DNA of 64,000 nt from Escherichia phage SholemSchwarzbard. The notes below the pieces were generated by a model. The model searched no databases. It was not told the DNA's origin and saw nothing but the letters and a program-made list of their open reading frames with translations. The translations under genes and the position numbers were made by a program. This document shows positions 16,699-20,885 of this stretch, piece after piece (positions within the stretch are counted from its first letter, which is position 1; every line of letters starts with the position of its first letter). The stretch lies in sequence record PP925840.1; one strand, given 5' to 3'.

Positions 16699-16728
16699 AC
16701 TATAACACAACACGAGGGACTTGTAAAC
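16699..16728 (-). promoter_or_regulatory. Early promoter (GTTTACA-17-TATAGT)
   Basis: Minus strand GTTTACA (16722-16728), 17-nt spacer, TATAGT (16699-16704); near-identical copy at 31865-31894. Confidence 0.6.
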
Positions 16729-18785
16729 TACATCTTGAACTTTTTAGACATTCCGTTGATGTTAACCAAAGAAGCCAAGATTTGAGAAACTTCGTTTTCC
16801 TCTTCTTTTGATTCTTCTACAAGGAATTGATTAAACCCAGCCATTGGACGAACTTCACCAGTTTCCATTAGATGATCGCCATCATATACCGATTCTTCTA
16901 ATTGTTCAGAAGGAGGAACGATTGTGCCTTCGATTAGATACTTGTTATAAGCAGTTTCTTTCATCATGTACGTGCTTACTTTATTAATCTTCAACAAAAT
17001 TCCACGCGGTAGAATAACTTCAGCTTCTGATGGAAATCCTGATAAATGACCTGGAACGATAACTTTGATTCGTTCAGCCCCTTTAATTACCATACCTACG
17101 CTAGTTTCAGCATCTTCATTCGCATAAGCAGAATGACTGCCCATATGCATTAAATCTTCAGCATCAACAGAACCTTCTCCTTCACCAGAAAATACTGCGC
17201 CAGAATCATCTAGAGCCATATAGTTTTTACCATGCTCACCGAAGATATTTGGTTTAAGCGATGTTGATACGAAGTTCTTGAAATAGAACATTTTATTTTC
17301 AATATTGTGGCGTAAAGTTTTAAAAGTAACTTCTTGTCCACGATAAAGCGTAGTTCCCGGAGGAAGAACTGAACCTTTGGCAAAGGCAGAATCCATTGTC
17401 TCGATGTGTTTAATAGCTCGTTCCATGTATTCTTCACGGGTAGAATCTGGTTTACCCAAGAGGAACGAGTTCATTTCAACATATGAATCTGCACAATAAT
17501 CTTCAATTACATCAGACTCAGCCTGAGTTAATCCTTTTGGAGTTACTTCGGTGCTTGCGTATTCATATGCCTGAGCAGCAGATTCATTAATCAATTTATA
17601 AATGCTATTCATGACAAATTGAATAATAGCTACTTTTTCGTCTGGCGTGGCTTTAGAACCTTTAACTAAATCATTGATAATTTTCTTAATAACATCAAAG
17701 CTATTAGAAATATTAATGTCAGCGAGATCGCTTAAAATTTTATCGGTTTTATAATCAAAGAATTCTTTATTCTTTAAATATTCTTGAGAACCTTGATGTG
17801 TTATATCGCTCTGCAGTCTGATAGACGGATCACGTAAACGTGCATGGGCCAATGCAATATGATTTCGGAAGCTTTCTAGTTCATAATCGTTAGATTTAAA
17901 ACGAGAAGCACTTCTCATACCACCGATAGCTCCTTTGCCGAAGTTGGAACCAATCTGAATAACGCCAGAGTTCATTGGTCCTTCTGCTTTATATACCGGA
18001 ACTTTAGATTCAAACTCTTGATATTTCTTAGCGGCGAAGCTATCGCCCTGGAGTGAAGCATCGACAGTAGAATATTGAGCTTGCGCTGCTAATCGACGAC
18101 TAATTTTAGTTTTCTGAATAACAGCTTGATCCGTGCGCTTATCATTTTCTAAAGCAATAGAAGCAGCAACAGCAACAGCTTTAGGAACAGCATTACCTGT
18201 TTTAACATCTACATAAACATCACCAACCTTTGATTCAACTTTTGTGAATAACTCAGTTGAAATAGGAGGTACACCTGGAATGTCTTCTAAATTGGCATTT
18301 TTACGGTAAACCATAATATATGCATACTTTTTATCATAATCCCAGATTTCCTTTAAAAGAACATATCGACCTGCTCCTTTAGTACGTACTAAACGGTCAG
18401 CAATAACTTGCATTTGACGAGCTGCGCCATTTGTTTTACTTTTTAGTACGCGGAATAGGCATGCATCAATTTTATACTGTTTCATTGTTTGAAGAGCAGT
18501 ATCAAAAACCGCATTAATGACACCAATTGGATTTCCACCCAAGTTTTTAAGTTTAACTAATGATAGTTTCTCATTGACACCTATCATTACGATATGCATC
18601 ATTTTATCGCCTGGCTTAACGTTTTTATTTGTATCACCGCCAGAGGTGTATGTACAAAATCTAAATCCAGGAAGCACGCTTTCTTCACCGGCTTGAATAG
18701 CAAAAATTTGAGGTATTTTATGCTTAGGATTTAAGTTAACAACCGGCGCCGAAGCGCCGTCAAATAATTCTGTAATAAGTTCCAT
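16728..18785 (-). CDS. Alt-family ADP-ribosyltransferase paralogue (second copy)
   Basis: 685 aa; N-terminal 240 aa about 65% identical to the adjacent Alt; C-terminal R-S-ExE motifs (LYRG, FVSTSL, EAEVILPRG). Confidence 0.85.
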   Translation of the reverse strand: MELITELFDGASAPVVNLNPKHKIPQIFAIQAGEESVLPGFRFCTYTSGGDTNKNVKPGDKMMHIVMIGVNEKLSLVKLKNLGGNPIGVINAVFDTALQTMKQYKIDACLFRVLKSKTNGAARQMQVIADRLVRTKGAGRYVLLKEIWDYDKKYAYIMVYRKNANLEDIPGVPPISTELFTKVESKVGDVYVDVKTGNAVPKAVAVAASIALENDKRTDQAVIQKTKISRRLAAQAQYSTVDASLQGDSFAAKKYQEFESKVPVYKAEGPMNSGVIQIGSNFGKGAIGGMRSASRFKSNDYELESFRNHIALAHARLRDPSIRLQSDITHQGSQEYLKNKEFFDYKTDKILSDLADINISNSFDVIKKIINDLVKGSKATPDEKVAIIQFVMNSIYKLINESAAQAYEYASTEVTPKGLTQAESDVIEDYCADSYVEMNSFLLGKPDSTREEYMERAIKHIETMDSAFAKGSVLPPGTTLYRGQEVTFKTLRHNIENKMFYFKNFVSTSLKPNIFGEHGKNYMALDDSGAVFSGEGEGSVDAEDLMHMGSHSAYANEDAETSVGMVIKGAERIKVIVPGHLSGFPSEAEVILPRGILLKINKVSTYMMKETAYNKYLIEGTIVPPSEQLEESVYDGDHLMETGEVRPMAGFNQFLVEESKEEENEVSQILASLVNINGMSKKFKM

Positions 18786-18788
18786 GAT

Positions 18789-20885
18789 TTATCCTTGAAC
18801 GAACTTGTAAGGCATGTTTGTAATATCTATGTAAGATGCAATAATTCCAAGAGATGATTCTACTTTTTGTTTAACATTTGATGAAACAAATGATGCAAAG
18901 TCAACTCTGTCTTCTATTTCAATACCACCTGTCATTGCAACTACTTCACCAGTTTCCATTAGACGGTCACCGTCATAAATTACTGATTCGGTGAGTTCTT
19001 CCGTAGTCATAACTTCAGCTTGAATGAGTTTTGTATTATTAGATGTTGTTCCGTCATTATTAGAAGCATCAGTTATTTTATTAACTTTGACCATCAATCC
19101 GCGTGGTAGAATAACTTCAGCTTCTGTTGCTATTCCGAGACTTCCTGGATATACAACATTAACTTTATGAGCTCCATCAATTGCCCATCCTATTTGAACT
19201 TTAACGTATTCAGGATTTTCTTTATACGCTCTTATTTCGCTTGGATTAATAGTTATTCCTTCTTCATTTTTATCAACTGTTAATTCATTACGAGCTTCTG
19301 GTTCTAAAAGACCAATACCAGCATGTGTAATTCCAAAACGTCCAAAAATGATAGGAGTTAAAGAAGTAGATACAAAATTTCTGAAATAGAACACTTTATT
19401 TTTAACTAGTGCTTCATATATAGGAGCAGTCATACTTTGAGCACGATAAACTGTAATGCCTTCTGGTATACGGTCACCATTTTCAAAAGCTGAATCTAAG
19501 TTATTTATAGCAGATTCAATTTCTTTTTCACTCATTACATCATATCGTTCTGGATTGTAGCGTCCTAAAAGAAGATTATTGATGTCAGTATATCCTGAAC
19601 CGCAATACTCTCTAATGCCACGCTTTTGTGATGGAGTATATTTAGAACCATCACGGGCAATAGTAATATCAATCATTGGACCTGCACCAATTCCAGAGAA
19701 ACTATAAATCATTCTTTTGAGGAATTTAGTTTTTGTCGCGTTCCAGGAATTTTTAGTTATTTCTTCCCAGACTTCATCTGGCTGTCCTTTACGTGTTTTA
19801 TTATGTTTATCAAGCCAATTATCTTTATATTCTTCAAAGAATTGATTAACAGCTGCTGCGTATTTCTCTAAACATTTTATTGAAGTAGTTGGTTCATTTT
19901 TAATCGCATTAAGAATTACATCTTTAATTTTTTCAGAAACTTCATTAACCTCACTTTTTGAAAAGAATTTATAGTCATAATGAAGTTCATCTGCAGTTCC
20001 TTCAGCAATAATTTTTGCTGCCTTAGTTTTAGAAGCTAATGAATTAATTCCAAGCTTCATTTCTTCTGCTTCGGGAATTAAAGGAGCCGTAGCAGGTTTA
20101 TTGAAATTAGCTGCGGTAGATTCATACTTTTGGAATAATTCACTTTCAAATCTAGAAGATTCTAATGATTGACTTTGTGCAATTGCTCTACGGGAAATTT
20201 TAACTTTAACGATTACAGCTTGGTCAGAACGTTTATCGTTTTCTTGCGCAATAGATGCAGCAATTGCCTCATTTTTAGTTACTTGAGCTCCAGTATCTTT
20301 ATTGATATAAACATCACCGACCTTCGATTCAACTTTAGTAAAGAGCTCGGTGCTAATTTCTGGAACTCCTGGAATGTCTTCTAGTGATACATTTTTGCGA
20401 TGTATAAGAATATATGCATACTTTTTATCGTAATCCCAGAGTTCCTTAAGAAGGACGTATCTACCACCTGAACGACTACGGATAAGTCTATCAGCAATAA
20501 GTTGAATTTGTCGAGCTTGACCAGCAGTTTTAGACTTAAGAATACGGAGCATACAGGCATCAATTTTATACTGACGCATCGTTTGCATCGCAACAGTAAA
20601 AACTGAATTGATGTAATTAATTGGGCTTGGACCGAGACCTTTTAATTTAGCAATTGAACCTTTAGCAGTTAATGTAAAAGGAACAATATGCATCATTTTA
20701 TCGCCCATCTTTAAATCGCGATTAGTATCACCTCCAGATGTATAGGTACACAAACGAAAGCCTGGTTGTTCAATTGCGTCATCAACATGAACTGAAAAAA
20801 TTTGCGGTATTTTCTTCTTTGGATTTAAGTTTGTAATCGGAAGAGTAGTATCTTCGTCAAATAATTCTGTAATGAGTTCCATCAT
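18789..20885 (-). CDS. alt: ADP-ribosyltransferase Alt
   Basis: 698 aa; R-S-ExE motifs (VYRA, FVSTSL, EAEVILPRG); position upstream of gene 30 as in T4; late promoter upstream. Confidence 0.88.
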   Translation of the reverse strand: MMELITELFDEDTTLPITNLNPKKKIPQIFSVHVDDAIEQPGFRLCTYTSGGDTNRDLKMGDKMMHIVPFTLTAKGSIAKLKGLGPSPINYINSVFTVAMQTMRQYKIDACMLRILKSKTAGQARQIQLIADRLIRSRSGGRYVLLKELWDYDKKYAYILIHRKNVSLEDIPGVPEISTELFTKVESKVGDVYINKDTGAQVTKNEAIAASIAQENDKRSDQAVIVKVKISRRAIAQSQSLESSRFESELFQKYESTAANFNKPATAPLIPEAEEMKLGINSLASKTKAAKIIAEGTADELHYDYKFFSKSEVNEVSEKIKDVILNAIKNEPTTSIKCLEKYAAAVNQFFEEYKDNWLDKHNKTRKGQPDEVWEEITKNSWNATKTKFLKRMIYSFSGIGAGPMIDITIARDGSKYTPSQKRGIREYCGSGYTDINNLLLGRYNPERYDVMSEKEIESAINNLDSAFENGDRIPEGITVYRAQSMTAPIYEALVKNKVFYFRNFVSTSLTPIIFGRFGITHAGIGLLEPEARNELTVDKNEEGITINPSEIRAYKENPEYVKVQIGWAIDGAHKVNVVYPGSLGIATEAEVILPRGLMVKVNKITDASNNDGTTSNNTKLIQAEVMTTEELTESVIYDGDRLMETGEVVAMTGGIEIEDRVDFASFVSSNVKQKVESSLGIIASYIDITNMPYKFVQG

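Follow-up and report, generated by a model that had tools for sequence, protein, structure and literature searches.

Two intact alt genes in Escherichia phage SholemSchwarzbard, the usual state in T-even phages, and the loss of most of the second in T4

Escherichia phage SholemSchwarzbard (PP925840.1) carries two adjacent minus-strand genes of the Alt family of ADP-ribosyltransferases (ARTs) within the 64,000-nucleotide (nt) stretch analysed here (the window, a segment of a Tequatrovirus, or T4-like, genome). Two intact alt genes are what most T-even phages normally have, T2 and T6 among them, and are already annotated as such; the departure is in T4, which has lost most of the second. We consider it likely that the locus provides two functional, paralogous Alt mono-ADP-ribosyltransferases, co-packaged and co-injected, which combine a common delivery module with distinct effector modules. 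An earlier note, made from this DNA by itself, had placed the two open reading frames (ORFs), and both lie where it put them; we refer to the upstream gene as copy 1 and to the downstream gene as copy 2 (Table 1). The tandem pair as such is already known: hundreds of GenBank records annotate it, and published papers mention it. In RB49, 44RR and T4, alt paralogues adjoin alt (Nolan et al. 2006, PMC1524935), and two Alt-like paralogues of 43% identity are described in a phage-genome paper of 2026 (PMC13600099).

By every measure that sequence affords, both genes are Alt-family, arginine-type R-S-E ARTs, with activity predicted for each. PF03496 (ADPrib_exo_Tox) matches copy 1 with 129 bits and copy 2 with 72.9 bits (curated Pfam cut-off 23.4 bits), PHROG 802 (‘Alt-like RNA polymerase ADP-ribosyltransferase’) spans both proteins (residues 1–685 at 850 bits; residues 1–696 at 901 bits), and BLASTP to T4 Alt returns E = 0 for copy 1 and E = 2e-157 for copy 2. 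In a three-way alignment, the triad residues of both copies are in register with those of T4 Alt, and R, STS and ExE are unchanged throughout a 24-sequence family alignment; no catalytic residue is lost from either copy, in agreement with the earlier note, which had seen the Arg / Ser-Thr-Ser / Glu-x-Glu triad in both. ExE is the arginine-type form of the R-S-E ART motif, QxE being the asparagine-type form, and its middle residue is alanine in both copies (E587-A-E589). The ART fold was found for copy 2. A sequence search returned no solved structure of Alt, and an NCBIfam search gave no family match. Compared with the Vis, C3, VIP2 and iota-type R-S-E bacterial ART toxins that share PF03496, the Alt proteins add an N-domain of ~230 residues, a helical region of ~230 residues and two propeptides that a protease removes; they are delivered by ejection from the phage head, not through a secretion system or the B component of a binary toxin.

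The two copies are related throughout (BLASTP E = 9e-157, 40% identity overall), with similarity distributed unevenly along the chain. Residues 12–240 are 67% identical without gaps, which bears out the earlier estimate of ~65% over the first 240 residues followed by divergence, and residues 241–628 are 27% identical taken as a whole. The last ~55–65 residues of both share a conserved motif, L-x-E-S-V..YDGDxLMETGE. The earlier note had located the divergence in the catalytic domains. These do differ (38% identity, with indels between STS and ExE), but the most divergent stretch is instead a helical segment at residues ~241–415, where identity falls to 3–20% per 40-column block.

Both ends of the proteins carry signals characteristic of a packaged Alt. 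In T4, each head takes up approximately 40 copies of Alt, which leave it together with the DNA at ejection (PMC9026906), and the prohead protease gp21 trims the protein at ITE-6 and LTE-619 to a mature 68.2 kDa form, established by mass spectrometry, removing only 6 N-terminal and 63 C-terminal residues (PMC5694885). The corresponding gp21 motifs are present and aligned at both ends of both copies, where cleavage is predicted, and both predicted propeptides are disordered in a structure model. Predicted mature masses are 70.2 kDa for copy 1 and 69.1 kDa for copy 2; the same calculation for mature T4 Alt gives 68.2 kDa, equal to the published value. The earlier note had assigned capsid targeting and protease processing to the first 240 residues, which overstates the role of this region: only the ends at ITE-6 and LTE-619 are cut (PMC5694885), and the N-domain is retained in the mature protein. 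Within the C-terminal propeptide, 12 residues are invariant in 24 of 24 homologues (E631, Y634, D635, G636, D637, E641, G643, E644, F651, F654, K682 and F683, copy 2 numbering), and given this invariance the propeptide probably has a function of its own, for example in targeting, tethering or auto-inhibition. A further gp21 site is possible at LME-641.

The T4 reference contains one alt (682 residues), followed by alt.-1 (61 residues), alt.-2 (67 residues) and alt.-3; there is no second full-length alt, and the earlier note was right to recall a single alt with small alt.-N ORFs. T4 Alt (NP_049811), a head-packaged NAD+:arginine ADP-ribosyltransferase, shares with the window proteins its locus, its length and architecture, the triad, the gp21 motifs ITE-6 and L-x-E, and the late promoter box. 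It is 99% identical to copy 1 over residues 1–246 and ~90% identical at the C terminus, with a different allele (~54% identity) in the middle and ART part; relative to copy 2 it is a separate paralogue, at 42–46% overall identity depending on the alignment. T4 annotation describes alt.-1/alt.-2 as ‘an old duplication of the first part of gene alt’. The alt.-1/alt.-2 stretch (NP_049810, NP_049809) is, however, 96.3% identical in nucleotides to the ends of copy 2 and 68.6% identical to T4’s own alt, and PHROGs 23015 and 15247, which represent alt.-1/alt.-2, reach 138 and 131 bits with copy 2 but 78 and 70 bits with copy 1. The remnant follows copy 2 collinearly through its opening ~350 nt, then continues with its last ~20 nt and the sequence downstream of its stop codon; the aligned flanks overlap by 9 nt. 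Two 9-bp CTAAAAAGT repeats stand intact in the window, 1699 nt apart. The identity values, a 1-nt deletion and the CTAAAAAGT repeats at both breakpoints thus identify T4 alt.-1/alt.-2 as a frameshifted derivative of full-length copy 2, reduced by a repeat-mediated deletion of 1699 bp, so that the gene intact in the window is broken in T4.

The full-length form of copy 2 is widespread. The part missing from T4 (1682 nt) occurs in 401 phage records at 93–99% identity and at least 80% coverage, a tblastn search with copy 2 likewise found 401 records at 90% amino-acid identity or above, and the complete 4.9-kb locus is covered in at least 347 records. Many of these label the pair ‘Alt-like RNA polymerase ADP-ribosyltransferase (x2)’ or alt_1/alt_2. 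Copy 2 has 99.9% identity to the sequence deposited for phage EPIMRB01. RB51 and SH7 share the two-gene state, SH7 having a T4-type copy 1 beside an intact copy 2, and the T2/T6-type allele of copy 1 occurs in ~329 records. The gpAlt proteins of T2, T4 and T6 were reportedly compared by Koch and Ruger in 1994. T2 and T6 (MH751506 and MH550421, respectively; also X69893 and X69894) contain a matching pair: gene order and gene lengths (2094 and 2058 nt) agree, either protein is 98% identical to its window counterpart, and essentially nothing distinguishes these pairs from that in the window. Copy 2 is a ‘hypothetical protein’ in the records of T2 (L010 2744–4801, labelled ‘alt.-1’) and T6 (L009 3302–5359), and the T6 record calls the full-length gene an ‘apparent insertion in alt.-2’.

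Two further states of the locus were found. The T4-type deletion junction is present in 91 records, among them T4 strains, RB55 and RB59, together with many independent isolates such as vB_EcoM_112, HY03, SG1, ACG-C40 and slur03/08/14; the deletion is a circulating natural allele and not a laboratory artefact. Yersinia phage PST (L005 2673–4733) has a single alt of 686 residues, copy-1-like over its first ~300 nt and derived from copy 2 in the remainder (93% amino-acid identity), a structure that marks it as a pair collapsed by recombination between the homologous N-terminal regions; further records may be in this state. Separately, two records named ‘Pseudomonas phage’ (PV654520.1 and OR584013.1) hold alt genes 95–98% identical to those of E. 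coli Tequatrovirus phages; mislabelled hosts or contaminated samples may explain this.

Dhakavirus phage dhabil (dhabil_260/259) has a tandem alt pair at the same locus and in the same order. Over the effector part (residues 241–628), its upstream gene is 75% identical to copy 1 and its downstream gene 52% identical to copy 2, whereas paralogues within one phage reach only 27–28%; neighbour-joining bootstrap values for this orthologue grouping are 0.985–1.0, in a tree rooted on the Krischvirus alt. The single Mosigvirus alt groups with the copy-1 type (bootstrap 1.0). Synonymous divergence (dS) between the two window copies is ~1.0–1.2, which is saturated. Since effector orthologues exist in both genera and paralogue dS is saturated, the duplication is placed, given this rooting, before the split of Tequatrovirus and Dhakavirus. 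A different outcome of alt duplication is suggested by Krischvirus GEC-3S (compare RB49ORF183c in Nolan et al. 2006, PMC1524935), where a 274-residue ORF downstream of alt (L007 6053–6877), annotated as hypothetical, is a stand-alone ART domain with the motifs YRGQ, FVSTSM and ECEVILPRG and lacks the Alt N-domain.

The N-domains follow a different pattern. Unlike the orthologous effector parts of the dhabil and window pairs, they cluster by genus, with 64–67% identity between within-genus paralogues against 41–47% between cross-genus orthologues, and both genus clades have bootstrap values of 1.0. This points to concerted evolution or co-adaptation of the delivery module. In a trial of gene conversion against co-adaptation, synonymous sites were saturated in all paralogue and inter-genus N-domain comparisons (dS 1.2 to infinity). 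Recent gene conversion between the copies was rejected because their longest common exact DNA word is 22 nt, located at the ExE motif. Copy 1 is itself a sharp recombination mosaic relative to T4 Alt (18987–20147, residues ~246–632): dS is 0.13 in the N-domain but 1.10 in the ART domain. The copy 1 effector matches the upstream gene of Dhakavirus (75%) better than it does the T4-type allele found in its own genus (54%).

Copy 2 is under strong purifying selection, in support of a retained function. The ratio of non-synonymous to synonymous substitution rates (dN/dS), taken against the RB51, SH7 and ime09 orthologues, is 0.03–0.08 overall, 0.02–0.04 in the ART domain and 0.07–0.12 in the middle region. 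For the N-domain, two comparisons with the window copy show 0 non-synonymous changes against ~20 synonymous ones; for the C-terminal segment, the figures are 0 amino-acid changes against 5–6 synonymous ones.

These data bear on four other accounts of the locus. In the first, copy 2 is a redundant back-up, packaged and active on the same targets as Alt (for example, Arg265 of RNA polymerase α), adding dosage or robustness only. Both copies share family, triad and the arginine-type ExE motif, Alt itself is non-essential (PMC9026906), and loss of either copy occurs in nature. The low identity over residues 241–628 and the indels between STS and ExE speak against this account, and pure redundancy is hard to square with two orthologous lineages kept apart across genera under strong purifying selection; we think it unlikely. 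In the second, copy 2 is made late and left unpackaged, as a modifier acting late in the cell that produced it. Its position behind a late promoter fits, as does the lack of virion proteomics evidence in literature searches, but copy 2 has the MELITE propeptide, the C-terminal L-x-E-S-V..YDGDxLMETGE segment and the N-domain in common with packaged Alt, and this N-domain shows no amino-acid change among Tequatrovirus orthologues, leaving the account with a small probability. A decaying or catalytically dead copy 2 would suit its lower Pfam score relative to copy 1 and its deletion in T4-type phages; we regard this as very improbable, a pseudogene or inactive protein being ruled out by dN/dS and the intact triad. 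Hardly credible is a recent duplication or replacement specific to this phage, which the earlier note had proposed from the single full-length alt of T4 and which is contradicted by a paralogue dS above 1, a Dhakavirus orthologue for each copy, the presence of copy 2 in T2, T6, RB51 and ~400 records, and its frameshifted, deleted remnant in T4.

Two injected enzymes with different targets, as the earlier note had suggested, remain the best reading, the difference in targets being a prediction. The two genes would share a late transcript, driven by the TATAAATA box upstream of copy 1. This box matters by its position; the count of the motif in the window (11, against 8.7 ± 3.0 expected by chance) is not above chance, and given this count we do not claim an internal TATAAATA (19502–19509, minus strand; inside copy 1, ~720 nt upstream of copy 2) as a copy 2 promoter. 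The copy 2 ATG follows the copy 1 stop codon after a spacer of only 3 nt, and a terminator scan found no terminator between the genes, from which we infer late co-transcription. Both proteins would then enter the prohead core, where gp21 would trim each at ITE-6 and at the L-x-E site ~55–65 residues from the C terminus, yielding ~70 and ~69 kDa forms. Injected with the DNA into the next host, they would ADP-ribosylate host proteins before phage gene expression. Delivery (propeptides and N-domain) would be common to both Alts, and because the effector modules (helical region and ART domain) have anciently diverged, different substrate spectra are most likely. The pair is ancestral to Tequatrovirus and Dhakavirus, T4 and ~90 other records having lost copy 2 by the 1699-bp deletion and the PST pair having become one chimeric gene.

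Several points weigh against this reading. Near its start, copy 2 lacks a late promoter box of its own. Literature searches yielded nothing specific on virion proteomics, biochemistry or an anti-defence role of copy 2, and we found no direct evidence for its presence in virions, its injection or its enzymatic activity; ADP-ribosylation acting on RNA polymerase α as well as further host proteins is established for T4 Alt only (PMC9503650, PMC9026906). The prediction of different targets comes solely from the sequence divergence of the effectors. Neither copy is essential in all settings, since copy 2 has been lost in T4-type records and a separate copy 1 in PST.

The biochemistry of Alt has all been done on T4, in which a natural deletion has removed the second enzyme. 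In most T-even phages, including T2 and T6, two different ADP-ribosyltransferases are probably injected. The usual descriptions, a ‘duplication of the first part of alt’ in T4 and an ‘insertion in alt.-2’ in T6, have the direction reversed: the sequences show a frameshift and a repeat-mediated deletion in T4. More tentatively, and with some doubt, the alt locus might be viewed as a two-slot effector system, in which a genus-specific delivery module evolves in concert between the slots and old effector modules are swapped by recombination, even across genera; Alt-2 might then ADP-ribosylate a different host target within seconds of infection, possibly a component of defence or of the stress response.

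The pair lies between gene 30/alt.1 and alt.-3/gene 54, as is the case for the T4 Alt family, and copy 1 is the positional orthologue of T4 alt, with a middle and ART part of the T2/T6-type allele. Coordinates are collected in Table 1.

Table 1 Features of the alt locus in the window (positions of the 64,000-nt stretch)
Feature	Position	Strand	Remarks
gp29, gp48, gp54	end at 16348	+	flank of the alt locus
Bidirectional terminator by alt.-3	16351–16372		
alt.-3	16377–16667	−	96 residues, DUF5498; normal-length form
alt.-3 early-type promoter, its own	16699–16727	−	
alt copy 2	16728–18785	−	685 residues; intact form of what remains in T4 as alt.-1/alt.-2
Copy 2 predicted C-terminal propeptide	16731–16892	−	residues 632–685, after LEE-631; disordered in model
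Direct repeat CTAAAAAGT, 3′ copy	16739–16747	−	gene nt 2039–2047; other T4 deletion end
Copy 2 catalytic core	17019–17342	−	R482 (17340–17342), S507-T508-S509 (17259–17267), E587-x-E589 (17019–17027)
Copy 2 conserved N-domain	18066–18767	−	residues 7–240; well-folded α/β domain without a specific solved relative
Direct repeat CTAAAAAGT, 5′ copy	18438–18446	−	gene nt 340–348; one T4 deletion end
A5 run in copy 2	18622–18626	−	A4 in T4, a 1-nt frameshift splitting alt.-1 from alt.-2
Copy 2 N-terminal propeptide MELITE	18768–18785	−	predicted gp21 site ITE-6, aligned with T4 Alt
alt copy 1	18789–20882	−	697 residues from the second ATG; ORF reaches 20885 (698 residues)
Copy 1 predicted C-terminal propeptide	18792–18986	−	residues 633–697, after LTE-632; aligns with T4 Alt LTE-619
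Copy 2 Shine–Dalgarno AAGGA	18792–18796	−	within the final codons of copy 1
Copy 1 catalytic core	19116–19445	−	R480 (19443–19445), S505-T506-S507 (19362–19370), E587-x-E589 (19116–19124)
Copy 1 conserved N-domain	20163–20864	−	residues 7–240, by alignment
Copy 1 N-terminal propeptide MELITE	20865–20882	−	predicted gp21 site ITE-6, aligned with T4 Alt
T4-type late promoter box TATAAATA	20906–20913	−	~21 nt upstream of the copy 1 start codon
alt.1	20935–21123	−	62 residues, PF24647 Phage_blade
DNA ligase gp30	21120–22583	−	beyond alt.1

The earlier note gave both ORFs, of 698 and 685 residues, the start MELITELFD. The shared MELITE start stands, but the 698-residue ORF begins MMELITE; its second ATG (20882) has the better Shine–Dalgarno spacing and matches the T4/T2/T6/RB51 annotation, so the copy 1 protein probably starts there and has 697 residues. 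Downstream of the pair, alt.-3 is of interest in T4, where mutations extending the C terminus of Alt.-3 (to 110 or 117 residues) allow escape from the CmdTAC defence system (PMC11618068). At the other end of the locus, a hairpin (AAAGGCC-TTCG-GGCCTTT) with a T-rich tail (20919–20936, minus strand) overlaps the alt.1 stop codon directly before the copy 1 late box; it is terminator-like in appearance and was not called by the terminator scan.

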